Below are positions 3,908-30,601 of a DNA stretch of 64,000 nt, one piece after another. Under the pieces are notes generated by a model. It had not been told where the DNA came from and made no database searches. It worked only from the letters and a program-made list of their open reading frames with translations. How positions within the stretch are numbered: position 1 is the stretch's first letter; the number at the start of each line of letters is the position of its first letter. The position numbers and the translations under genes were made by a program. The DNA comes from Candidatus Anderseniibacteriota bacterium (GTDB taxonomy: Bacteria; Patescibacteriota; Andersenbacteria; UBA10190), in contig JBBDZC010000003.1 of assembly GCA_040900375.1 (NCBI GenBank), positions 586-64,585 on the forward strand. The letters run 5' to 3'.

Positions 3908-5341
3908 TCAGGGTTGCCGCTCTGGCTGAAGATTGAGGATAATACGTTTTTCAATACGAGGGATGGATTGAACCCAAAAGGGCCATAAGTTCAAATCTAC
4001 CGATCGTACTCCAGGTAGGCCCTGGAGATAAGTAGTTGCCTCTTGGCGTTTACGACCTGCTAATTTTTCTCGAAGAGTTTCCAGTGATAGCTGCGGAATT
4101 GTGGTATGAGTGACTCGGACCAAGACTGTTGCTTCGGCTTGTTCCCAATTAATGTCCTCAACAGTTTTATTATAGGTAATAGGACCAGGAAAAAGCATAT
4201 ATTCTTGATCGAGGCGTTCTGTCAAAGCAATTGTCAGCTTGGCTTCAAGCGCTTGCTGCTCATAACCAATGACGCGAACAATCGAACGCGCCGTGTAGGG
4301 AATAGTTGCTTGTCGGCTATCAAGGGCCGCCTCGCTCGTAAAGGATATGATCTCGTTAGTCCAACTTTCCTCTAAAATAATCCAGTTTTGGGGTAGTTCT
4401 TGGCGAATCTCTTGCTCCACTTTGGCCCTCGCTTTGCTACCCGCATCTTGTCGCGCTGTCTCTAGGTCTTGTTCTTTAATAACCGCTACGTTCTCACCAG
4501 AACCCCCCGTTAAAGCTGTCGTCGCCTCCGCGTAGACCAAGGATTGAGCAGGTGCATCTAGGGCGGCGAAATTAAGACGTTGGGGTTCAATATTACTCTC
4601 GGCCCCCGCCTCGGCCGCTTCTACCTCTACACTGACAGTACCTGCTGGAGGAATTGTGGCGCTTTTTATCATGAAAAACAGCTTGTCATCCTGGGTTACG
4701 AGACGGCTGCGTTCTTTAATTTTTTGTTCATCAACAGTGCGATTAATGAGTTGCACTCTCCCCTGCGTCTTTGTGCCTATTACTTCAGTACTAGTCACGG
4801 TAGCCGAATCGGTGATCTCAACTTCGCGAAAAAAAGCCGAGCCGGGAATATTGCCAGAAGCTTCTGCTCCCTCGGCTTTAATGGTTAAACGTTCATCCAC
4901 CAGCAAGGGAGCCGTGCGCAACACCATTTTAACATTTGCCCGAGGAAGAAAAATAAACCCAGCGAGTAGGCTGGCCAGGATCACTAAACCAAGCAATGCG
5001 AGCACTACTTTGCGCTCACGGTGACCTAAACGGACTGACCGAGCCGGATTCTTGGTCTTAACCGCCGACGAAGGGGCTGAAGCTAGGCGGTTACCGCTCG
5101 CAGTTTTCTGCGGTGCCGCTACCTGAATATTAGTAACCGGTACCTTGGCGCCCGGAGGCAATCGCTTTGACTCCAGGGTTTTTTTATTAAAGTTGCTGGC
5201 CTGATTTTGATAAGTCGAGCGGGCATGCTCCGGAGAGCGCCCCGCCGGCACGGGCAACTTTGGCAAAGAGGAGAGCGGCGGCTTGTGATCACCAGGAAAA
5301 TCACGAGGATGCATATTGGGAGTAGGTCGTATATCACGCAT
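3908..5341 (-). CDS. hypothetical membrane-anchored protein
   Basis: 477 aa with a Pro/Ser-rich basic N-terminal ~120 aa, one TM helix (VVLALLGLVILASLLAGFIFL) and a large extracytoplasmic domain. I do not recognise a family. Confidence 0.5.
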   Translation of the reverse strand: MRDIRPTPNMHPRDFPGDHKPPLSSLPKLPVPAGRSPEHARSTYQNQASNFNKKTLESKRLPPGAKVPVTNIQVAAPQKTASGNRLASAPSSAVKTKNPARSVRLGHRERKVVLALLGLVILASLLAGFIFLPRANVKMVLRTAPLLVDERLTIKAEGAEASGNIPGSAFFREVEITDSATVTSTEVIGTKTQGRVQLINRTVDEQKIKERSRLVTQDDKLFFMIKSATIPPAGTVSVEVEAAEAGAESNIEPQRLNFAALDAPAQSLVYAEATTALTGGSGENVAVIKEQDLETARQDAGSKARAKVEQEIRQELPQNWIILEESWTNEIISFTSEAALDSRQATIPYTARSIVRVIGYEQQALEAKLTIALTERLDQEYMLFPGPITYNKTVEDINWEQAEATVLVRVTHTTIPQLSLETLREKLAGRKRQEATTYLQGLPGVRSVDLNLWPFWVQSIPRIEKRIILNLQPERQP

Positions 5342-5389: not shown

Positions 5390-7159
5390 TCATTCGAGGA
5401 CTGCCTTAATCCGGCGAATCCCCCCACCAGCTGATTCTTCTCTAGTAATCCGGAAGCGGCCAAGCTCCCCCGTCCGGGTAACGTGCGGCCCGCCACATAT
5501 TTCTCGGGAGAAGTCACCAATCATATAGACACTAACACGCTCGCCATATTTGTGGGCAAATAAACCCAAAGCTCCAGCGGCTGTTGCTTCCGCCACCGTC
5601 ATTTCTTCTTTGATCACAGGCAAGTCCGCCGTAATTTTTTCGTTAACCATGTGTTCTACTCGTTGCAATTGCTCGGCCGAGAGCTTCTCGGGGTGAGAGA
5701 AATCGAAACGCAAGCGCTCTTGGGTGATATTACTGCCTCGCTGCGTGACGTGGTTGCCTAAGATTACACGCAAAGCTTGGTGCAGCAGGTGGGTTGCGGT
5801 ATGGTAGTGGACTGATTCCTGCGAGTGATCAGCGAGTCCGCCAGAAAATTTACCGCGCGAGGCTTGCCGCGAGTCTGTCTGATGCTGCGCTAGCGCCTGG
5901 GTAAAGCTCGGCAGATCGACGGTCAATTGATGTTCGCGAGCAAGCTCTTGGGTTAATTCAATCGGAAAACCGTACGTCTCGTATAAGTGGAAGGCTTCAG
6001 TGCCAGAAATAGTGCGGGTATTGCGCTGCCGGAGCCGGTCAAAATGCCGCAACCCGGTCGTTATGACCGCCTCAAATTGGGTAATTTCAGCTTTCATCTT
6101 TTCTCGAGCCAAAGTCTCATGGCGTACCAATGAAGGATACGTTGAACCATATTGCTGCGTAGTAATATGGATGCCTTCATCCATAACCTCTGTCATATTA
6201 GTGATGCCCAGCACGCGCGCAGAGCGGACTGCTCGCCGAATCAGCCGGCGAGCCACATAACCCTGGCCTGTTTTTGAGGGCAGCACTGGATGTTCGTCGG
6301 CCAGAATGAAGGTCGCGGCCTTGAGGTGATCAGCCACAATCCGCTGGTGACGCTCATTGGGTTTACTGACGGCTGCCGCAATAGCCGCTACTAGTTCTTG
6401 GTAGGTATCAATTTCATAAATACTAGTCAGGCCCTGTAAGATCATCACCACTCGTTCTAAGCCCATCCCCGTATCCACATTTGGCTGCGGCAGGGTCTCA
6501 TAGCGGTCATTGGCTGTGCGAGTGTATTGCATAAAAACATCATTCCAAATTTCCACCCATCGCTTGTCCTGCGGATCAAAATGGACAGGCGCAGCCTCAT
6601 TCCCCGTCCAGAAAAACATTTCTGTATCTGGTCCTTGCGGGCCCAAGGCCTTTCCCCCTGCCGGCCACCAATTGTCTTTCTTGTCCAGGTGGGCTATGCG
6701 CTGCGGTGAGACCCCGCATTTTTCCCAGATTGTTGCTGCCTCGGTGTCACCAGGGGCATCGGCATCCCCCGCAAAGACGCTTACTGCCAGGAGGTTAGGA
6801 TCAATTTCTAACCACGCAGATGATGTTAAAAACTCCCAGCTCATCATGATTGCTTCACGCTTAAAATAGTCTCCGAGCGACCAATTACCAAGCATTTCAA
6901 AAACAGTTGCATGCGTGGCATCTCCCACCGCCTCAATATCGGTTGTCCGCAAGCATTTTTGGACACTGGTTAAACGCCGCCCAGCAGGATGAGGCTGTCC
7001 TTTAAGATAGGGTACTAAGGGATGCATACCGGCCGTGGTAAACAGCACCGAAGGATCGTTTTCGGGAATTAAAGGGGCACTGGGTATACGGCGATGCCCG
7101 TGAGCCTCAAAAAACTCGAGGTAGCGCTCGCGTAATTCATTAGAAGACAATTTTTTCAT
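5390..7159 (-). CDS. alaS: alanine--tRNA ligase, compact form (catalytic + tRNA-recognition + editing domains, no C-Ala domain)
   Basis: N-terminus FTTAGMHPLVPYLKG...TSVQKCLRTTDIEAVGD..HATVFEMLGNWSLGDYFK is class-II AlaRS. Editing-domain motifs HTATHLLHQAL and CGGPHV are present. Only 589 aa against about 870 typical. Confidence 0.85.
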   Translation of the reverse strand: MKKLSSNELRERYLEFFEAHGHRRIPSAPLIPENDPSVLFTTAGMHPLVPYLKGQPHPAGRRLTSVQKCLRTTDIEAVGDATHATVFEMLGNWSLGDYFKREAIMMSWEFLTSSAWLEIDPNLLAVSVFAGDADAPGDTEAATIWEKCGVSPQRIAHLDKKDNWWPAGGKALGPQGPDTEMFFWTGNEAAPVHFDPQDKRWVEIWNDVFMQYTRTANDRYETLPQPNVDTGMGLERVVMILQGLTSIYEIDTYQELVAAIAAAVSKPNERHQRIVADHLKAATFILADEHPVLPSKTGQGYVARRLIRRAVRSARVLGITNMTEVMDEGIHITTQQYGSTYPSLVRHETLAREKMKAEITQFEAVITTGLRHFDRLRQRNTRTISGTEAFHLYETYGFPIELTQELAREHQLTVDLPSFTQALAQHQTDSRQASRGKFSGGLADHSQESVHYHTATHLLHQALRVILGNHVTQRGSNITQERLRFDFSHPEKLSAEQLQRVEHMVNEKITADLPVIKEEMTVAEATAAGALGLFAHKYGERVSVYMIGDFSREICGGPHVTRTGELGRFRITREESAGGGIRRIKAVLE

Positions 7160-7259: not shown

Positions 7260-7949
7260 TTAGAAGTATTTGCGCTCTTTTGAGTCTTTGATCAGTTCAT
7301 AAGCCGCCTCGGCAGTGTCGACAATAGAGTATAGATCCGCGTCAGGCAAAGAGATCGTCTGATATTTTTCTAAGAGGATTTGTTTAATCCACTGATCAAG
7401 CGGTGCCCAAAAATCATGACCGACACAAACCACAGGAACTGATTCCATCTTGCCTGTTTGCACTAAGGTGACCATTTCAAAAAATTCATCCATCGTGCCA
7501 AAACCGCCGGGAAAAAAGACATAGGCTTGCGCCGAGGCAGACAGCATAACTTTGCGAGTAAAAAAATAATGGAAACCAACACCTTTTTTCACATAGGCAT
7601 TTCGCCGCTGCTCCATTGGCAGTTCAATATCCAGACCGATTGATTCTCCCCCGCCCTCGTACGCTCCGCGGTTTCCCGCCTCCATAATTCCTGGCCCGCC
7701 ACCAGTAATTACTGTGAAACCGTTTTCTCCCAGAAGCCGCCCTAAAGCCTGAGCTTGTTGGTACCAGTGGGAATCTTCTTCGAGCCGGGCCGAGCCAAAG
7801 AAAGTTACTTCCCGGCGCAAGGCCGAGAGAAATTCAAAGCCCTCAATAAATTCAGCCATAATTCGGAAGACTCGCCAATTGGCATCTTCCGCAAAGTTGA
7901 AGGGTTTATCAATGCCGAATTTGTCATTCTCTTGAGCAATATCCCGCAT
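7260..7949 (-). CDS. LOG family protein (TIGR00730, cytokinin riboside 5'-monophosphate phosphoribohydrolase-like)
   Basis: VTFFGSARL...ITGGGPGIMEAGNRGA...PGGFGTMDEFFE are LOG / lysine-decarboxylase-like motifs. Confidence 0.8.
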   Translation of the reverse strand: MRDIAQENDKFGIDKPFNFAEDANWRVFRIMAEFIEGFEFLSALRREVTFFGSARLEEDSHWYQQAQALGRLLGENGFTVITGGGPGIMEAGNRGAYEGGGESIGLDIELPMEQRRNAYVKKGVGFHYFFTRKVMLSASAQAYVFFPGGFGTMDEFFEMVTLVQTGKMESVPVVCVGHDFWAPLDQWIKQILLEKYQTISLPDADLYSIVDTAEAAYELIKDSKERKYF

Positions 7950-8195: not shown

Positions 8196-9938
8196 TTATG
8201 GCAGGGGTGGTGGCGTGGGTCCCACAAAGGCAGCTGGTTGCGACGGCTTGGGCGAGTGTTTGTGAGAAGGAACGTCTGTTGCTGACGAGGATGCAGCCGC
8301 ACCTACCGTATGCTGCCTTTGTCGTTTTTCTTCCTTAACCTCCGCGAAGCATTCTCGACAATAGACTGCCTTCTCGGGATCAGGCATAAATGGCACTTCC
8401 GCTTGATTGCCACAGCGGTCACACGTAATGGTGTACATTGTTTTTTTCGATTTCCCCGCCTCATGAGACACTGGTTGCTCCGCGGCAGTTAAAACCGCTG
8501 CGAGATCAGTAATCTCACGCTGCTGAGCTTGAACTACCACATCTTGCAGTTCCTTTTCAATAAACTGCTGGGGAGGGCTGGGTGGCCTGGACTGTGTTCG
8601 CGCAGGCCGGGCGGCACTTGGTTGGCCTTCGTCAACAGCCGCCTTGCCCTGTAAAACAACACCGCTCCAGCGCGCGATCTTTTCTTCCACAATTTCTCGC
8701 TGTCGGCCGTAACGCTCCCGCGAAACATTAATCACTGTGTCCTTTTTGCCAAAATCCTCAATCGCGGGCGGGATTGTCTGCATACTGAATGGCTTGCTAG
8801 TTACCCCATGAATCATGAGCTTCACGTAGGCATTATATTTGTTGAGGTTAACCAGGTCAGTCTCTGTAAATGTGGGAAAGAACTCCTTTTCTAAGTACTC
8901 TGCATCAAAAGCACCAACCCGGAAAGAAATTAATGTGCCGACATTGCCAAAGACCGCATCGCGCACAGGTTCTTCCATTTGGGTAATATATTGATGGGCA
9001 ATAGTGAGGTTTAAACGATACTTGCGCGCTTCCGAGAGAATGGTGGCAAAAGATTCAGTTGCAAAATTTTGAAACTCATCAACATAGAGGTAAAAATCAC
9101 GCCGCTCTGCTTCAGGCATACTGGCTCGGTCCATGGCTGCTAACTGAATACGGTTAATTAACATTGCTCCCAACAAAGCAGAATTATCTTCGCCAATTTT
9201 TCCCTTAGAAACATTGATCAGTAAGATTTTGCCGTTATCCATAATATCTTTCATATCAATTGTGCTCTTAGGTTGAGCAACAATATTGCGAATAATGGCC
9301 GAGCTTAGAAATTGCCCTACTTTATTTTGAATAGGCGAAATCGCTTCACTACGAAAACGCTCATTATAGTTAGCAAATTCGTTAGTCCAAAAGGCTTTGA
9401 CCACCGGGTCAGAGATCTTTTCTACTACTTTCTTACGGTACTTTTGGTCAGACAGCATACGTAAAATCCCCAAAATAGTACTCGAGGGGTAATCAAGTAA
9501 TGCTAAAATGGTATTGCGTAAAATATATTCGAGTCGCGGCCCCCAGGAATCGGCCCATATTTTCTTGAGACTAGAAACTAACCCAGAGGCAACGAGGTAT
9601 TTATACGAGGGGTCAACAGCCTCGAGCACATTAAAGGCGATGGGGTAGTTAACGTCTGAAGGATCAAAGTAAATAACGTCGTTAATGCGCTCGGGAGGAA
9701 TAGCATTCAGTAACTTCTCCGCGGTATCACCATGAGGATCGACTAAACAAACCCCTTTATTATTGACAATATCTTGCGCAATCATGTTCTCTAACAGTGT
9801 GGATTTACCTACGCCGGTTTTTCCAATGACATAAATATGCCGCCGGCGATCGTCGGGATAAATACCAAATTTCCGGTGCTGACCGCGAAAATTAGTTTGA
9901 CCCACAATCGTGATATCTGGTATCTCGGTAAGTTTCAT
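8196..9938 (-). CDS. VirD4/TraG/TrwB-like coupling-type P-loop ATPase, soluble, with Pro-rich tail and C-terminal CxxC...CxxC zinc ribbon
   Basis: Walker A is IGKTGVGKST and Walker B is FYLYVDEFQNF. The conserved ARKYRLNLTIAHQ box resembles the T4SS coupling-protein / FtsK-HerA superfamily. The C-terminus carries CDRCGNQAEV...YCRECF. Confidence 0.6.
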   Translation of the reverse strand: MKLTEIPDITIVGQTNFRGQHRKFGIYPDDRRRHIYVIGKTGVGKSTLLENMIAQDIVNNKGVCLVDPHGDTAEKLLNAIPPERINDVIYFDPSDVNYPIAFNVLEAVDPSYKYLVASGLVSSLKKIWADSWGPRLEYILRNTILALLDYPSSTILGILRMLSDQKYRKKVVEKISDPVVKAFWTNEFANYNERFRSEAISPIQNKVGQFLSSAIIRNIVAQPKSTIDMKDIMDNGKILLINVSKGKIGEDNSALLGAMLINRIQLAAMDRASMPEAERRDFYLYVDEFQNFATESFATILSEARKYRLNLTIAHQYITQMEEPVRDAVFGNVGTLISFRVGAFDAEYLEKEFFPTFTETDLVNLNKYNAYVKLMIHGVTSKPFSMQTIPPAIEDFGKKDTVINVSRERYGRQREIVEEKIARWSGVVLQGKAAVDEGQPSAARPARTQSRPPSPPQQFIEKELQDVVVQAQQREITDLAAVLTAAEQPVSHEAGKSKKTMYTITCDRCGNQAEVPFMPDPEKAVYCRECFAEVKEEKRQRQHTVGAAASSSATDVPSHKHSPKPSQPAAFVGPTPPPLP

Positions 9939-9950
9939 AGAATCGGTAAC

Positions 9951-11243
9951 TTAAATATACGGCAGATTTTCCGGAGCGCTACCGAGACCGGAAGTGGCTC
10001 GCTGAATACTAGGAGAACGACCATATTTGCTGGGAAAATGAAAAAGAGTAGCGAGTTCTTCAGCCGTCATCATTGACCCACTCTTATCTCCCCAAAAATC
10101 CCGAAATTGATAATTAAGCAATATTACACGTTTACGATATCGCCGCCGCGTCTGCTTGAGAATATAATTAGGACCATTTGTTTTTGTAGCATCATCAGGC
10201 TTAAGAGAGTTAAGATGAGACGTGTTAAATTGTTTAAACACGCCAATCGCTTTACTGGCGTTGGGTTTATGAAGCTTGCCGACGGGGGCAATGTGAACGA
10301 CTCGCATTTTAGTGCGAAAACCCGAACGGCCAACTTTTTGCAAAATAGCTTTAGTAATGTCTTGTTCGGGTGGGGTCATAAAGAGCCGTTGTGGTTTAAT
10401 ATCATTCTTTGCACTCGCTTCGAGGGGACCCTTAGTCGCTGCTTGGAATAGTTCGCCAGGCAACGCCGTTAAAAACTCAAATAAGCGCGCGGTGACTCCT
10501 GGCGGCTTCTCTTTAACCCGCCCGGCAATCCTATTAATCTCTTCCTGGCCCCGTTCTGACCACGTATTAATGTCGGAGGCACTAACAGGACGGACGAGTA
10601 ACTGAAACCAAAAATGTTCACCCTCTTCAATGGTTGTAAACGCTTCAATCAGTGCTTGCAAGGGGTCAATGTAGCGCTCATCTTCGGCTAAGGCATCTTC
10701 ATAATCATGGTAGGTTCTAATCGGAAAAATATCCTCTCGGACGAGCACCATCTCTGTGCCGTAGAGATCAAAAGTTTTTTCTAGATCTCTATGAGGAAAA
10801 GCTTGGGCATAATCTTCAACCTCGCGGATTTCCGCGGTCGGATATTGACCATAAATTACTCCTTCAAAAAACTTTCTATGCACCGTCGGCACAACCATAA
10901 TAAAGCGGACTCGATTACGCGTGCATTCTAACTCACAAGTGTACCAGGCAAGCATATACCCCTCAAAGTATCGCTCCAGTAAATCAGGATTTTTATGAAT
11001 GCCGCCCCACACTTCAAAAGCTTGCTCCATCGCCTTGGGTGTTTGCGGCGTCTCTTCCGGCACAGTAATTTGGAGGTACGTGAAGTGAATCGCGGAAACA
11101 TAATCAATCTGCTTGAGACGCAGATATACTTCCCAGGCGATCCAGAGGGCAAAAAAGACAATAAATAACCAGCCCCAAGAAAGTAAGACAGTTGCAAATT
11201 CGCTTAAGAGACGAAGAATATTGGAAAAATCCCAGAATGACAC
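9951..11243 (-). CDS. hypothetical membrane protein, partner of the VirD4-like ATPase
   Basis: 430 aa with N-terminal TM helices (LLSWGWLFIVFFALWIAW). It ends 12 nt before the ATPase start. No family recognised. Confidence 0.45.
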   Translation of the reverse strand: MSFWDFSNILRLLSEFATVLLSWGWLFIVFFALWIAWEVYLRLKQIDYVSAIHFTYLQITVPEETPQTPKAMEQAFEVWGGIHKNPDLLERYFEGYMLAWYTCELECTRNRVRFIMVVPTVHRKFFEGVIYGQYPTAEIREVEDYAQAFPHRDLEKTFDLYGTEMVLVREDIFPIRTYHDYEDALAEDERYIDPLQALIEAFTTIEEGEHFWFQLLVRPVSASDINTWSERGQEEINRIAGRVKEKPPGVTARLFEFLTALPGELFQAATKGPLEASAKNDIKPQRLFMTPPEQDITKAILQKVGRSGFRTKMRVVHIAPVGKLHKPNASKAIGVFKQFNTSHLNSLKPDDATKTNGPNYILKQTRRRYRKRVILLNYQFRDFWGDKSGSMMTAEELATLFHFPSKYGRSPSIQRATSGLGSAPENLPYI

Positions 11244-11343
11244 AGAGGCAATAATTTTCCGCTGACAGTTTTAAAATATCAGGGGCGTATGCTTAACCAT
11301 ACCATAAGCCCCGCGGTTGGTGCGACTTAAGTGGGGCGGTTAA

Positions 11344-11525
11344 GAGCTTGGTGAATAATGAATTATTGTACTCGGGTGCCGCCCCCGCCTTCACCAGTAC
11401 CGCTCCGGCGGGTACACCGAGTCAAAGCCGCCTGCCCTACCGAAGCTTGCCGAAGCGAAGGCGGGTCGGACGGGGGTGCAGGTGCAGGCAGGCCCCGCTC
11501 GATACTGAAGTTATTCACCAAGCTC
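11344..11525. repeat. ~182-bp GC-rich element bounded by a perfect 15-bp terminal inverted repeat (GAGCTTGGTGAATAA / TTATTCACCAAGCTC); MITE-like
   Basis: The inverted repeat sits at 11344-11358 and 11511-11525. A homologous element with degenerate ends lies at 23590-23725 (shared AGAGCTTGGTGAAT...TTATT.TACTCGGGTG and CCGCTCGATA.T blocks). Confidence 0.55.
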
Positions 11526-11540
11526 CAGCTAAGGAAAATT

Positions 11541-11649
11541 GACTCTTCGACTCGCGCAAGCTCCACCCTGAAGGGTGGAGATAAGCGCGGCTCAGAGTCA
11601 ACCCTGAGCAAGCCACGGCCTTTAGACCGTGGAGTCGAATGGGTTGACA
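11541..11649 (+). repeat. copy 1 of a ~109-bp multi-hairpin repeat family
   Basis: GACTCTTCGACTCGCGCAAGCTCCACCCTGAAGGGTGGAG...CCACGGCCTTTAGACCGTGGAGTCGAATGGGTTGACA. Near-identical copies occur at 19324-19434 (+), 23749-23857 (-) and 30453-30563 (-). Confidence 0.85.
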
Positions 11650-11661
11650 ATGTCGAGGTCT

Positions 11662-12717
11662 TTACGACCGGAGGGTGTAGCGGTTCTCGGGCGTCTTAAT
11701 AAAACGTTTTTCGTTTTGGAGGCCGAGGAGGATAGTGTTCTTCTTAACCTGACGCTGGGCTAACACTTGCTCAATTAGCTCTTCGCGGGTCAAAGGAGTT
11801 TGGGCGCGCGCGAGTAATGACTCTAAAACATCGGCAACTGTGCCTGGGATATAACCCCACTCTGCCAGCCCGTATAAACCGCGACCGACTAGCACAAATC
11901 GATCATCTTTGATCAGTTCATTATGCACAGTTTGAGCATTGGCTTGCTTATGATCAAAAGCGGCTTCATTGATCAAATTAGTGATTCGCGTAAAGTGCTC
12001 TGGTTTGCCGTGGCGACGTAATACAGCATAGGCCTTATCACCGACTCCGCGCGGATTAGTTTCCGGCCAACCCGCCAGCCCCCATTCAAGAAAAGGAGTC
12101 TGGTTAACGTGTTTGCTTGCCTTGAGGCACGCGTCAATATAGCGAGAGGGTAATGTCTCCAGAGTTTCTTTAAGGCTGTGTAAGATCCCCTCAATCAACT
12201 CTTGCTCGGGCAGGGGATGTTGAGTTTGCTTTAAAATCTGGCGAGCGCTCTCCACCACCACCACAGCCTTATCTGTTACGACTGCCGGATAGCGCCAGTG
12301 CGGAGCAAAATACTGGTCACGAGAAACATACGTGTATGGCGGCAAAATCTCTAAGTAAAAGGTGACGACCGCCGGATGAATGTTATCCTGGCCAAGCACT
12401 TCACGCACTACTGCCACTACATGATTATCCGCCAGGATACCGCCATGATTGACGAAAATCTCTTCAAAAACCTCGGCTACTGGCTGCAAGGGGTCATGCA
12501 AAGCCGCTAAAACCTTTTTAGCTTGTGATTCGATTTGGCGCACTCGCTCGCGGGTAATACCATACTCTTTACCAATACTCTCGAGCGTCTCTACATGACC
12601 ATTGTTTAACCCAAAACGGCGACTGATAATGTCGCGAGAACGATCATCAAGCGCTTCCAAAAGTGTCTGGGTAAGTTGGTTAAGTTTTAATGCTTTAGCA
12701 GGGGCAGTCGCGGACAT
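11662..12717 (-). CDS. sigma-70 region 4-like HTH fused to two HARE-HTH-like domains; putative transcription factor
   Basis: The N-terminus (TLESIGKEYGITRERVRQIESQAKKVL) is a sigma-70 region 4.2 signature. The C-terminus (RFVLVGRGLYGLAEWGY) and an internal segment (PFLEWGLAGW) resemble the HARE-HTH (RNA polymerase delta N-terminal) motif F.RVGRGLYGL.EW. Confidence 0.55.
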   Translation of the reverse strand: MSATAPAKALKLNQLTQTLLEALDDRSRDIISRRFGLNNGHVETLESIGKEYGITRERVRQIESQAKKVLAALHDPLQPVAEVFEEIFVNHGGILADNHVVAVVREVLGQDNIHPAVVTFYLEILPPYTYVSRDQYFAPHWRYPAVVTDKAVVVVESARQILKQTQHPLPEQELIEGILHSLKETLETLPSRYIDACLKASKHVNQTPFLEWGLAGWPETNPRGVGDKAYAVLRRHGKPEHFTRITNLINEAAFDHKQANAQTVHNELIKDDRFVLVGRGLYGLAEWGYIPGTVADVLESLLARAQTPLTREELIEQVLAQRQVKKNTILLGLQNEKRFIKTPENRYTLRS

Positions 12718-12870
12718 AGTGTTGAGTAATTTTTCTTATATTGACACGGGGGTACTCCCCTAGTTCTTAATATATGATTAACCTAATCTGACTAATTGGG
12801 TTGCTAATTGACTAATTAAATCCAACATTGACTTATAGCACATACAAATAGCTATGTCAAACTAGCTTAT

Positions 12871-12899
12871 AATATAGGTCGAGATTGACTTTTAGTCAA
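12871..12899 (-). promoter_or_regulatory. putative sigma70-type promoter with overlapping palindromic operator, upstream of the sigma-r4/HARE-HTH gene
   Basis: On the minus strand: TTGACT (-35, plus coordinates 12894-12899), a 17-nt spacer, then TATATT (-10, 12871-12876). The -35 lies inside the perfect palindrome TTGACTTTTAGTCAA (12885-12899). The 327-bp AT-rich spacer also has TGACTAATT direct repeats (12789-12797, 12809-12817) and the palindrome GTCAATGTTGAC (12971-12982). Confidence 0.35.
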
Positions 12900-13044
12900 C
12901 TCTACTGCAATAAGCACCCCAACATACAGCAAGATCCCCTGGTTTGTCCAGAGTCACCTAGAGAAACAGTGTCAATGTTGACTGACACCGTCTAGTAAAG
13001 TTGTAACTCTCTTCATGAGAATATTGTTCGCAAGTTTCGCCGGT

Positions 13045-19221: not shown

Positions 19222-19323
19222 AGAAATTCATCCTTATAAGTCCCTGGTGATAACAAGACCTCCTATGTCTTATACATACCTTACAACAAAGAAGTGCCGG
19301 GACGGAAACTGTTTATCTAGTTT

Positions 19324-19434
19324 GACTCTTCGACTCGCGCAAGCTCCACCCTTCAGGGTGGAGATACGCGCGGCTTTAGAGTCAACCCTTAAGCAAGCCA
19401 CGGCCTTTAGACCGTGGAGTCGAATGGGTTGACA
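19324..19434 (+). repeat. copy 2 of the ~109-bp multi-hairpin repeat, inside the murD-mraY spacer
   Basis: About 93% identical to copy 1. The differences fall at hairpin loops (TGAA to TTCA, CTCAG to CTTTAG, TGAG to TTAAG). Confidence 0.85.
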
Positions 19435-21660: not shown

Positions 21661-22494
21661 TCAAAATGCCTGCCGTGAGGTACCTGATAGTTGGGCACTA
21701 TGCGGCAACGGCGCACCGCGGTATTTCCAGAAATACTTAAATGCTGAGCGAATATGTTCGCGCGTGGCCCAGTTAGTGATAATACCCATAAGTGTGCCCT
21801 GACTCGTGCGCTGATGAAAATGGGAAAAACGAGCTTGCGGTACATAAGTTACGCGCCATCCGCCTTGCCAGAAGCGGCGACACCAATCCACATCCTCAAA
21901 GTAAAGAAAGAAACGTTCATCCATGCCACCTATTACTTTAACCGCGGCTGCCCGCAGCGCCAGACAAGATCCCATGAGCCAGTCTACGTCTTGCACTTGT
22001 CGGTGATCAAAGTCTTTCATCAGAAAATGATTAATTTCTTTCTTGCCTAAACGAGTTTGCCCTAGCCACGTGCGCCGGTAAAGAATGGTGAGGAGTTTAT
22101 AAAAATGGTAACAAGAGTATTGCACTTTGCCACTCGGCGAGAGTAACTGTCCCCCTGCCACCCCCACATCCGGATGCGCCTGAAGAAACTGTGTGAGAAT
22201 CATAACAGAACCCGGTAGAGCAATAACATCGGGATTCAGCACTAAGTAGAACTGACCTTGGGCCTGGGCTAGCGCCTTATTAACTCCCGCCGCCAATCCC
22301 ATATTTTTAATATTATCAATCACCATAATTTCTGGGAAATCGGCACGGAGGAACGAGACGCTAGTGTCAGATGATCCATTATCAACCACGATAATTTCCG
22401 TGCGAGGAGGTAGTTTTTGTGTGAGCAATGACTCAATACAGGCTTGCGTGAGCGCTCCGGTATTATAGTTAACAATGATAATAGATAGCTTCAT
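21661..22494 (-). CDS. glycosyltransferase family 2
   Basis: MKLSIIIVNYNTGALTQACIESLL...VVDNGSSDTS...LNPD are classic GT2-A motifs. Confidence 0.8.
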   Translation of the reverse strand: MKLSIIIVNYNTGALTQACIESLLTQKLPPRTEIIVVDNGSSDTSVSFLRADFPEIMVIDNIKNMGLAAGVNKALAQAQGQFYLVLNPDVIALPGSVMILTQFLQAHPDVGVAGGQLLSPSGKVQYSCYHFYKLLTILYRRTWLGQTRLGKKEINHFLMKDFDHRQVQDVDWLMGSCLALRAAAVKVIGGMDERFFLYFEDVDWCRRFWQGGWRVTYVPQARFSHFHQRTSQGTLMGIITNWATREHIRSAFKYFWKYRGAPLPHSAQLSGTSRQAF

Positions 22495-23589: not shown

Positions 23590-23725
23590 TTTAGAGCTTG
23601 GTGAATGAGGAGTTATTATACTCGGGTGACACCGGGGGGAGGACCCGCCCTTAAGCAGCACCAAGCCTTGCGACTGCGGCCGCAGGGGCGGGGCAGCCGC
23701 TCGATATTTATATTCGCCAAAATCT
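23590..23725. repeat. second copy (degenerate ends) of the ~180-bp TIR element seen at 11344-11525
   Basis: Shares AGAGCTTGGTGAAT.A.GA.TTATT.TACTCGGGTG at one end and CCGCTCGATA.T at the other, with a different GC-rich core. Confidence 0.5.
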
Positions 23726-23748: not shown

Positions 23749-23857
23749 GTCAACCCATTCGACTCCACGGTCTAAAGACCGTGGCTTGTTCAGGGTTGAC
23801 TCTAAAGCCGCGCTTATCTCCACCCTGAAGGGTGGAGCTTGCGCGAGTCGAAGAGTC
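23749..23857 (-). repeat. copy 3 (inverted orientation) of the ~109-bp multi-hairpin repeat
   Basis: The reverse complement matches copies 1 and 2 over the full length. Lies in the divergent GT2 / murF intergenic region. Confidence 0.85.
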
Positions 23858-23921
23858 AATGAAAGCCAGCAATGGCTGCGCGGCGCTTTTCGTGGATAAG
23901 GAAAAGATGTAGCCTTAGAGT

Positions 23922-25649: not shown

Positions 25650-26897
25650 ATGCCTCGTCATGAAAATATGTCGCCTATTCTCACCGCTCTCTCGCCCAAT
25701 ACTGAATCAGATGACCGAGTCCGAGCCTGGCAAATACTACAGCGCCCTTGGCGCTGGCATGATGCAAACCAGGTAGCGTCAGTGGAAAAGAAAATATCAG
25801 CATTATTTAATCATCTACCAGCCGTCACCGTCAGCTCGGGACGCCGGGCAATGAGCTATGTCCTTGAAGCTTTCGATATTGGCCAAGGTGATGAAGTAAT
25901 AATCCAAGCCTTTACATGCCTAGCCGTACCGGCAGCCGTGATGTGGACAGGGGCTAAGCCAATATACGCCGATATTGAAGAAACAACTTTCAATTTCGAT
26001 GTAGTTGACATTAGTCGCAAGCTTACCCCTCGCACCAAAGCAATTATTATTCAGCACACGTTTGGTATTCCTGGTCCCCTGGCCACACTCCAAGTTCTCG
26101 CCGCCAAAAATAATATTATTCTAATTGAGGATTGTGCTCATGCTTTGGGCGCTACCTATAACACTGCCCCTGTAGGTACCCAAAGTGATGCTGCCATCTT
26201 AAGCTTCGGCCGCGATAAAGCTTTATCCTCCGTCTTTGGCGGAGCCGTCGTCAGCCGCCACCCACATATTATCGCCCGCATCCGCACTATCCAGACCGCC
26301 TTACCCTATCCGCCTGCTTGGTGGATAATTCAACAATTACTGCACCCTCTCTTCCTGGCAGTGATTAAGCCGCTATATTTCTCCGCCAGCATAGGAAAAA
26401 TTATTTTGGTAATCCTCCAGCGCTTAAGTATCCTTAGTCTGGCAGTTACCCGCTCCGAGAGAGTCGGCGCCCAACCCAATCATGCACGCTGGCGTTATTC
26501 ACCGGCCCTCGCTTATCTTCTCGCGCAACAACTCGATAAACTGGAACGCTTCACTGCTCATCGTCGTAAGATTGCGGCTACCTACGCGAGAGCCCTATCA
26601 TATTCCCCTTCGTTTCCGCCTGCAGCTCAACCAAGTTGGTTGCGCTTTCCCGTCGTCGTTACAGATCGGGCAGCCGCCGTCGCCGCCGCCCGGGCAGCCC
26701 ATATCATGTTAGGTGACTGGTATCAAGATGTTATCATGCCCACAGTTGAAAAGTCGCAAATCAATTATCATCCAGGTTCATGCCCACGCGCCGAAAGTAT
26801 CGCTACCAAAATTATTAATTTACCAACATATCCCGCCTTAACTACTAACCAAGCCGAATGGATTAGTAAAATTGTTGCTCCATATGTCCGACATTGA
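25650..26897 (+). CDS. DegT/DnrJ/EryC1/StrS family PLP-dependent sugar aminotransferase
   Basis: VTVSSGRRAMSYVLEAFDIGQGDEVIIQAFTCLAVPAAVMWTGAKPIYADIEETTFNFD and SFGRDKAL (PLP-lysine region). Confidence 0.8.
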   Translation: MPRHENMSPILTALSPNTESDDRVRAWQILQRPWRWHDANQVASVEKKISALFNHLPAVTVSSGRRAMSYVLEAFDIGQGDEVIIQAFTCLAVPAAVMWTGAKPIYADIEETTFNFDVVDISRKLTPRTKAIIIQHTFGIPGPLATLQVLAAKNNIILIEDCAHALGATYNTAPVGTQSDAAILSFGRDKALSSVFGGAVVSRHPHIIARIRTIQTALPYPPAWWIIQQLLHPLFLAVIKPLYFSASIGKIILVILQRLSILSLAVTRSERVGAQPNHARWRYSPALAYLLAQQLDKLERFTAHRRKIAATYARALSYSPSFPPAAQPSWLRFPVVVTDRAAAVAAARAAHIMLGDWYQDVIMPTVEKSQINYHPGSCPRAESIATKIINLPTYPALTTNQAEWISKIVAPYVRH

Positions 26898-30452: not shown

Positions 30453-30563
30453 TGTCAACCCATTCGACTCCACGGTCTAAAGGCCGTGGCTTGCTTAAGG
30501 GTTGACTCTAAAGCCGCGCGTATCTCCACCCTGAAGGGTGGAACTTGCGCGAGTCGAAGAGTC
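30453..30563 (-). repeat. copy 4 (inverted orientation) of the ~109-bp multi-hairpin repeat
   Basis: The reverse complement is about 97% identical to copy 2. Lies between a GT2 start and a truncated NIF3 fragment. Confidence 0.85.
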
Positions 30564-30601
30564 AAGTGCATTACTATACGAACATGCTACCACTGACCTA
30601 A

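Follow-up and report, generated by a model that had tools for sequence, protein, structure and literature searches.

A 351-amino-acid (aa) protein encoded in a 64,000-nucleotide stretch of DNA from a Candidatus Anderseniibacteriota bacterium (the whole stretch is hereafter the window) joins region 4 of a sigma-70 factor to four winged-helix (WH) modules, three of which are of the HARE-HTH (helix-turn-helix) type. The gene is an ordinary, intact member of a large uncharacterised family of Patescibacteria (Parcubacteria-type) whose proteins are not sigma factors and reuse region 4 as a stand-alone DNA-reading head. Across the family the residues of region 4 that contact the -35 element are invariant, TTGAC sequences are specifically associated with the upstream regions of the family genes and in one clade a TTGAC-N5-GTCAA palindrome is conserved at the gene's own promoter. 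The reading that we favour, with a probability of roughly 40%, is that of a DNA binder built on sigma-4 which reads -35-like TTGAC sites and acts as a repressor at its own promoter.

A large part of bacterial diversity belongs to Patescibacteria, which have tiny genomes with few recognisable regulators and whose gene regulation has been described as essentially unknown (PMC11665869). A conserved and widespread non-sigma protein with a sigma-type -35-reading head is a candidate lineage-specific transcription regulator. As its candidate target our analysis offers TTGAC and, within one clade, the TTGAC-N5-GTCAA of its own promoter, together with a structural idea in which an internal helix would replace the flap tip of the polymerase.

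A sigma region 4 head followed by four winged-helix modules

The gene lies on the minus strand with an ATG start and its stop codon at 11662-11664, and the parts of the protein map to the window as follows.

11662..12717, minus strand: gene of the sigma-4 and four-winged-helix protein (open reading frame (ORF) list, identical deposited protein, full-length homologs)
12505..12684, minus strand: sigma-70 region 4 (4.1 and 4.2), aa 12-71 (Pfam, family profile, invariant residues)
12292..12498, minus strand: WH-A, aa 74-142, winged-helix-like, helix-strand-helix-helix-strand-strand in the AlphaFold2 model, no Pfam family
12070..12270, minus strand: WH-B, aa 150-216, degenerate HARE-HTH-like (partial match, E 0.06) with winged-helix secondary structure, contains PFLEWGLAGW
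11857..12045, minus strand: WH-C, aa 225-287, canonical HARE-HTH (E 7e-8)
11665..11838, minus strand: WH-D, aa 294-351, third HARE-HTH-type module (E 1.2e-3 over profile positions 1-70 of 71)

A Pfam search places Sigma70_r4 at aa 19-69 (E 1.2e-13, 50.7 bits against a cut-off of 24.1) and HARE-HTH (PF05066) in the protein as a whole (E 7e-14, 52.4 bits against a cut-off of 25.9, best stretch aa 228-287), with no match to Sigma70_r2 or Sigma70_r3. This bears out an earlier description made from the letters alone (the sequence-only reading) in which the protein was said to begin with sigma region 4, recognised by the string GITRERVRQIE (aa 53-63), and to lack regions 2 and 3. The NCBIfam sigma models reach the protein through their region-4 ends alone and far below their own cut-offs. 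When the family profile was compared with region 4 of solved primary sigma factors the match was strong (E ~1e-16), with an identity of 40-50% between the two regions, and residues R26, R34, T44, L45, T55, R56, E57, R58, R60 and Q61 do not vary among 70 family members that are 32-67% identical to the query. With the exception of T44 we take these to be the equivalents of E. coli R554, R562, L573, T583, R584, E585, R586, R588 and Q589, and their assignment as -35 contacts follows from the structure of Taq sigma-A region 4 with -35 DNA (1KU7) and from E. coli genetics. Judged by its residues the head looks fully functional for DNA recognition. The protein thus shares with the sigma-70 family a region 4 HTH with its -35-contact residues but not region 2, and as regions 1.2-3 are absent it can neither recognise a -10 nor melt a promoter, lacks the main surface for core binding and cannot serve as an initiation factor by itself.

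The family is large and its architecture is stable. A protein deposited from a Candidatus Andersenbacteria metagenome-assembled genome (P0001, 191.6-kb contig) is 100% identical to the 351-aa protein. Two homolog searches returned thousands of matches; among the 240 matches listed, on which we rely here, query coverage was 90-100%, length was mostly 330-385 aa, PF04545 was present in all and PF05066 in nearly all, and the organism names, where present, were those of Andersenbacteria, Kaiserbacteria, Paceibacterota, Minisyncoccia, Pacebacteria and unclassified Patescibacteria or Parcubacteria-group bacteria. A Campbellbacteria locus is also among the family loci. In an exhaustive search of 1.84 billion representatives the family amounts to 583 clusters (50% identity) at E<=1e-30, nearly all of 330-400 aa, and by full-length homology and the same domain order the protein belongs to this patescibacterial sigma-4 and HARE-HTH family of ~350 aa. 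Members are named 'sigma factor-like helix-turn-helix DNA-binding protein' or 'HTH domain-containing protein' at NCBI, and some are named 'RNA polymerase delta subunit' at JGI.

The possibility that the gene is a fragment of a housekeeping sigma factor, which the sequence-only reading had raised against itself, did not hold, as ~580 clusters share the full-length ~350-aa architecture. A truncated sigma gene or pseudogene is accordingly ruled out by the length and architecture kept in hundreds of clusters and by a confident compact model (predicted local distance difference test (pLDDT) 95.9). A phage origin is ruled out since matches to viral structures and phage records do not extend past region 4, and a component of a defence system since the gene is surrounded by mur genes, DUF8128, a LOG-family gene and the genes of a VirD4-like ATPase and of alanyl-tRNA synthetase; neither defence partners nor a nuclease domain were found in the Pfam scan of the protein, in PADLOC or among the neighbouring genes, the sole PADLOC match being MzaA through region 4.

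A few relatives depart from the common form. On the Abditibacteriota plasmid pIAD-21 (AP024153.1, positions 26-1732 of locus L031), outside Patescibacteria, a 568-aa homolog is 25% identical over aa 35-350 and has an N-terminal extension of ~220 aa without a Pfam match; region 4 has probably led to its mis-annotation as 'RNA polymerase sigma factor RpoD'. Extra domains are present in two family representatives, a DnaA domain-IV HTH at the C-terminus of P0357 (552 aa) and a SecF at the N-terminus of P0337 (659 aa), as a result of either genuine fusion or the merging of gene calls.

We built an AlphaFold2 model on the 70 family members. The model is compact and confident (pLDDT 95.9, predicted template modelling score (pTM) 0.87), with the whole chain predicted to be folded, and consists of sigma-4 (helices 12-71) followed by four modules of helix-strand-helix-helix-strand-strand order. 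When segments were scanned separately WH-C alone scored above the HARE-HTH threshold (33.2 bits) while WH-B and WH-D individually fell below it. The 'tandem HARE-HTH' domains of the sequence-only reading are therefore real as to the domain but not as to the number, since both the segment scans and the model give four winged-helix modules rather than two. The two motifs on which that reading was based, PFLEWGLAGW (aa 207-216) and RFVLVGRGLYGLAEWGY (aa 273-289), are both present and form the wings of WH-B and WH-C, whereas WH-A and WH-D had been overlooked. Conservation is highest in the basic parts of the protein, which are sigma-4, WH-C and WH-D (WH-C has the highest conservation of the modules with a mean top-residue frequency of 0.75, and WH-D a mean charge of +3.2), while WH-A and WH-B are acidic and more variable. 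WH-A has a family mean charge of -3.6 and its first helix (74-90) directly follows sigma-4.

The nature of WH-C raises the question as to whether the protein is a delta-like accessory subunit of RNA polymerase. Here WH-C would dock in the manner of the N-terminal domain of Firmicute delta, sigma-4 would compete with or supplement region 4 of the primary sigma at the beta flap or the -35 element, and the palindrome described below would be bound by another regulator or be a mere promoter feature. It is in favour of such a role that WH-C (aa 227-287) passes the delta-subunit model TIGR04567 RNAP_delt_lowGC of NCBIfam (45.4 bits, cut-off 42), that it aligns weakly with a solved delta subunit (8x6g_E), that it is the most conserved module and that the family is widely distributed with housekeeping-type synteny. 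However delta works through an acidic C-terminal tail, which is missing here (acidic fraction of the last 30 aa 0.07, family maximum 0.20) and the C-terminal module is basic, and the gene-specific TTGAC palindrome would be left unexplained. In addition the binding site of delta on the polymerase, at the beta' shelf/jaw (PMC7749165), and that of sigma-4 at the beta flap are on separate parts of the enzyme, so that a protein as compact as the model (pTM 0.87) could hardly bridge them and both contacts at once are unlikely. Overall we regard a delta-like role as rather unlikely, and the idea of a possible association with RNA polymerase comes from the delta-subunit-type domain.

A comparison of the model with PDB structures by Foldseek points to a possible arrangement within the protein. 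The top matches were engineered chimeras of sigma-A region 4 and the beta-flap-tip helix (98-116 aligned columns, template modelling (TM) score 0.76 over 96 residues) whereas plain sigma-4 chains aligned over 57-72 columns, which suggests that helix 74-90 may occupy the place of the flap-tip helix in the sigma-4 groove. The stretch VFEEIF (aa 83-88) after sigma-4 resembles the LLRAIF pattern of the flap tip. A helix filling this groove would make this sigma-4 independent of RNA polymerase.

This bears on a further alternative in which the family would supply region 4 in trans to a primary sigma factor without a working region 4 of its own. The strict invariance of the -35-contact residues and the wide distribution of a family that resembles a core gene would agree with such a split sigma, but the groove for the beta flap appears from Foldseek to be filled by the protein's own helix. 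Other genes of the window have TTGCCT, TTGCAA or TTGACA boxes 16-17 nucleotides (nt) from TATAAT-like boxes, and such varied TTGnnn -35 boxes fit ordinary sigma-A recognition and argue against it too. No primary sigma factor gene was found in the window or in the 31 loci, and a literature search on it was also empty. Genomes of this group generally carry ordinary rpoD genes. We consider a split sigma very unlikely.

TTGAC sites and, in one clade, a conserved palindrome upstream of the family genes

Between murB and the gene lies a spacer in which the following elements were located.

12718..13044, no strand: spacer between murB and the gene, 327 bp, AT-rich, with 8 TTGAC/GTCAA pentamers
12971..12982, no strand: distal inverted repeat GTCAA-TG-TTGAC (GTCAA-CA-TTGAC on the gene strand), not conserved at this position in relatives
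12921-12950, minus strand: weak promoter match TGGACA-18-TATGTT facing the gene (promoter scan)
12871..12899, minus strand: promoter-like P1, TTGACT-N17-TATATT, its -35 being the left half of the palindrome
12885..12899, no strand: conserved palindrome TTGACTAAAAGTCAA (gene strand), an exact TTGAC-N5-GTCAA and candidate operator
12832..12860, minus strand: promoter-like P2, TTGACA-N17-TATAAG, read from the sequence, with a similar element in the clade
12789..12838, no strand: three AGTCA(A/G)-type repeats ~20 bp apart, including the TGACTAATT repeats, downstream of P2 and in this genome only

The spacer is AT-rich and 327 bp long as previously described, with a GC content of 0.376 compared with 0.487 for the window. 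Its 8 TTGAC/GTCAA pentamers stand against an expectation of 0.78 (at least 8 in 0 of 20000 shuffles) and make it the densest 327-bp stretch of the 64-kb window for these pentamers, the next peaks being copies of a dispersed repeat that is described in the following section. Read on the gene strand, the distal repeat is followed by the weak promoter match, P1 with the palindrome, P2, the AGTCA(A/G) repeats, a short GC hairpin and the ATG, before which there is no Shine-Dalgarno sequence.

Most of what the sequence-only reading had noted in the spacer was recovered. The direct repeats are present as two copies of TGACTAATT at 12789 and 12809, and the perfect palindrome TTGACTTTTAGTCAA at 12885-12899 proved to be the only exact TTGAC-N5-GTCAA in 64 kb. 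What had been called a second palindrome, GTCAATGTTGAC (12971-12982), is an inverted repeat of 5+5 nt around a non-palindromic 2-nt centre and is unconserved in relatives. The good -35/-10 pair TTGACT-17-TATATT is found on the gene strand at 12899..12871, although as a match taken alone it does not rise above shuffled sequence (2 promoter matches in the spacer region, 2.0 expected) and it gains weight because it is conserved in other genomes.

We compared 30 related loci, comprising 27 GTDB species representatives and 3 close metagenomic relatives. An exact TTGAC-N5-GTCAA is present in 8 of the 30 as well as in the window, once per locus and always upstream of the family gene, 37-130 nt from the homologous start codon, where 0.009 exact palindromes would be expected per 9-kb locus. 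The centre of the palindrome varies (TAAAA, TAATC, GAAAT, TTGTA, CAAAA) and the flanks are unalignable, while the right half-site GTCAA is invariant in the 9 genomes. In most palindrome-bearing loci (for example L001, L003, L028 and L029) the left half is followed after 17 nt by TATAnT, and ~25-30 nt further on a second element, TTGACA-N16/17-TAnnAn, is found upstream of most clade members, with a stretch from P2 to the ATG that is much shorter in the relatives than in this genome. The palindrome overlaps the -35 of P1, and what had been called an operator-like element thereby gains real support as a conserved candidate operator in the gene's own promoter, given that the exact palindrome recurs in the window and 8 loci despite divergent flanks and a variable centre.

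The association with the pentamer itself is broader than that with the palindrome. TTGAC lies within 150 nt upstream (<=150 nt) of 26 of 29 family genes compared with 12 of 101 other genes of the same loci (Fisher 4e-15), and for the full TTGAC[AT]-N16-18-TAnnn[TA] pattern the figures are 21/29 and 6/101. The sequence-only reading had suggested that such palindromes might define a regulon, but within 64 kb no second exact TTGAC-N5-GTCAA was found and the count with one mismatch was at chance; as the sole exact copy in 64 kb the site is specific to this gene.

We propose that the sigma-4 HTH would bind -35-like TTGAC sequences and that at the gene's own promoter two copies of the protein would sit on TTGAC-N5-GTCAA, with half-site centres 10 bp apart, where the pair would cover the -35 and spacer of P1 and so repress transcription of the gene. 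In this genome the extra TTGAC/GTCAA sites, in roughly helical phase, could extend the complex over P2 and the leader. The basic and highly conserved WH-C and WH-D may add DNA contacts or a delta-like contact with RNA polymerase, the compact predicted shape arguing against sigma-4-type and delta-type contacts with the polymerase at the same time. That it is the protein itself which binds these sites, that it does so as a pair and that the effect is repression is what we infer.

A simpler account would do without autoregulation. The spacer would then hold a stack of strong tandem sigma-A promoters that drive a housekeeping gene at a high level, and the palindrome would be a by-product of them or be bound by some unrelated repressor. 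TTGAC is the consensus -35, P1, P2 and the weaker match at 12921-12950 all face the gene, other genes of the window have promoters of the TTGnnn-N16/17-TATAAT type as well and the number of promoters in the region is not above that in shuffles. What such promoters do not account for is the right half GTCAA, which lies within the P1 spacer, is not required for recognition by sigma and is nevertheless invariant in 9 genomes. Nor are many of the TTGAC copies in the spacer oriented or placed to serve as a -35 (5 of the 8 read GTCAA on the gene strand), and TTGAC is rare upstream of neighbouring genes (12/101). A divergent promoter as the reason for the right half-site is ruled out, as our own reading of the spacer and the relatives found no conserved -10 on the opposite strand. 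We hold tandem promoters without autoregulation to be unlikely.

Several points nonetheless weigh against autorepression through the TTGAC sites. The palindrome is lacking in the Andersenbacteria subclade L008-L016 and likewise in the Paceibacteria-type loci, where the TTGAC promoter alone is kept, though sigma-4 is invariant everywhere. The binder of the palindrome could be another protein, and MarR-type winged-helix dimers use similar GTTGA-N5-TCAAC sites. The enrichment could reflect strong sigma-A promoters given that TTGAC is the consensus -35, and there is no sign of dimerisation of the protein. The flap-tip mimic for its part draws on Foldseek summary numbers, and the single-sequence fragment model made for it was poor (pLDDT 59.7).

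A wider reading can also be put forward, in which the family would be a Patescibacteria-wide reader of -35 sequences outside the sigma factor, made independent of the polymerase by its flap-tip-mimicking helix, binding TTGAC promoters across the genome and acting, in organisms with very few transcription factors, as a global regulator that occludes or marks promoters and limits itself through the palindrome. We consider this unlikely. If the protein were no more than a delta-like accessory factor or a local autorepressor, the result would be a useful annotation without surprise.

No structured RNA was detected in the spacer or in the gap downstream of the gene; Rfam gave nothing, whether at gathering score or at E<=10, and neither a tRNA nor a tmRNA was found. 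Upstream of several genes elsewhere in the window (for example those at 5390-7159, 7260-7949, 25650-26897 and 21661-22494) and in loci L003, L008 and L030 a TATAAT-like -10 ends only 7-12 nt before the start codon, with no visible Shine-Dalgarno sequence, a pattern which suggests that leaderless mRNAs may be common in this lineage.

Gene neighbourhood and the DUF8128 partner

Two genes downstream of the sigma-4 gene on the same strand are of particular relevance.

9951..11243, minus strand: DUF8128 membrane-protein gene (orf430), the conserved downstream neighbour, PF26449 being assigned to its homologs
8196..9938, minus strand: VirD4/TrwB-like ATPase with a C-terminal treble-clef zinc finger (orf580; Pfam TrwB/VirD4, DUF87, TraG-D_C)

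Within the clade the gene order is murD, ftsW, murG, murC, (murB), the sigma-4 gene, DUF8128, the VirD4/TrwB-like ATPase, a LOG-family gene and alaS. In distant relatives (35-38% identity) a dnaB or a Trp/Tyr-type (class Ib) aminoacyl-tRNA synthetase gene lies upstream and a DUF8128-like gene followed by mltG/yceG lies downstream. The statement of the sequence-only reading that the gene sits where ddl/ftsQAZ would follow murB is thus valid for the Andersenbacteria clade but not for the Paceibacteria-type relatives, in which dnaB, a synthetase gene or mltG adjoin, so that the position after murB is clade-specific and DUF8128 is the constant partner. The sigma-4 gene and DUF8128 stay adjacent in 29 of the 30 related loci, across sigma-4 proteins of 100% to 35% identity, and it is the other neighbours that vary. 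Homologs of the DUF8128 protein are all named 'hypothetical protein'.

A phage profile of 824 positions, phrog_5156, covers orf430 and orf580 with one half each, so that the two are probably a split coupling-protein-like unit and the ATPase is likely the working partner of DUF8128. This opens the possibility that the sigma-4 protein is the DNA-recognition partner of a split coupling-protein-like translocase and guides or loads its motor on specific DNA, by analogy with the accessory DNA-binding proteins of conjugative coupling proteins and the winged-helix gamma domain of FtsK. The adjacency with DUF8128 over such a range of identity, the joint profile, the TrwB/VirD4, DUF87 and TraG-D_C matches and zinc finger of orf580 and the position of the locus at the end of a cell-division and cell-wall cluster in this clade would all be in keeping with it. 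The ATPase is however not adjacent in Paceibacteria-type loci, conserved adjacency is by itself no proof of interaction, the intact -35-contact residues of sigma-4 point to promoters, and in these bacteria VirD4 homologs mostly show no linkage with secretion genes and have no known role (bioRxiv 10.1101/2025.01.22.634366). A translocase partner seems to us quite unlikely.

The gap between the stop codon of the sigma-4 gene and DUF8128 (11244-11661) measures 418 bp with 62% GC, compared with ~10-120 bp in most relatives, and folds far better than shuffled sequence on both strands (z -5.4, -6.1). Within it a perfect 15-bp inverted repeat, GAGCTTGGTGAATAA / TTATTCACCAAGCTC, closes off a segment of ~180 nt (11344-11525), and there is also one copy of a dispersed GC-rich repeat of ~112 nt. 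Copies of the latter lie at 11538-11649 (+), 19322-19434 (+), 23749-23860 (-) and 30453-30565 (-), are 93-95% identical and all intergenic, and occur in either orientation relative to the flanking genes. The left end of the ~180-nt segment recurs at 23590-23628 beside another copy. The ~112-nt repeat has TTGAC at both ends, and three hairpins are closed by its terminal inverted repeat of 8 bp, TTCGACTC/GAGTCGAA; it matches nothing in Rfam, occurs in none of the 30 related loci and looks like a miniature mobile element or a repetitive extragenic palindromic (REP)-like repeat. Just past alaS a 477-aa ORF (3908-5341, minus strand) has a weak Baseplate_J-like match (E 7e-5) and may be the remnant of a phage or a contractile injection system.

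Comparison with known systems

What is new here is the four-module architecture, the scale of the family in Patescibacteria and its linkage with DUF8128, together with the gene-specific association with TTGAC, the conserved palindrome and a possible flap-tip mimic. Already known are the family name at NCBI and, reportedly since 2012, the domain combination. To our knowledge there is no earlier description of a conserved TTGAC palindrome at the family's own promoter. Later papers do no more than confirm HARE-HTH in delta and in restriction enzymes, and our literature search found no paper connecting HARE-HTH with Patescibacteria.

The closest precedent is that of Aravind and Iyer (Cell Cycle 2012; 11:119), who are said to have listed fusions of sigma region 3/4 HTH with HARE-HTH and to have predicted, by analogy with delta, that these inhibit polymerase binding at start sites. 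These fusions are likewise reported to join the HTH of a sigma factor to HARE-HTH, but the present proteins have no region 3 and carry four winged-helix modules rather than one, and the family is dominated by genomes of Patescibacteria which were nonexistent in 2012.

Delta (RpoE) of Firmicutes is a protein of ~170 aa with one N-terminal domain and an acidic disordered tail, and this tail has a net charge of -47 and displaces nucleic acids (PMC7749165). The likeness lies in WH-C, a HARE-HTH domain that passes TIGR04567 although it is internal here and not N-terminal, and the differences lie in the lack of an acidic tail and in the three further winged-helix modules and the sigma-4 head. With primary sigma factors (sigma-A/sigma-70) the protein shares regions 4.1 and 4.2 at 40-50% identity including all -35-contact residues, but it is without regions 1.2-3.

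The best structural matches are the chimeras of sigma-A region 4 and the beta-flap-tip helix (7KUG, 7KUF, 8D5V, 3T72), in which the flap-tip helix is an engineered fusion whereas here a natural helix of WH-A would take that place. NCBIfam and PADLOC both give as their best match MzaA, the sigma-70-family part of the anti-phage system MZA, with a likeness confined to region 4; this match covers 66 residues of a 726-position profile, and the present gene stands in housekeeping surroundings with no other MZA component.

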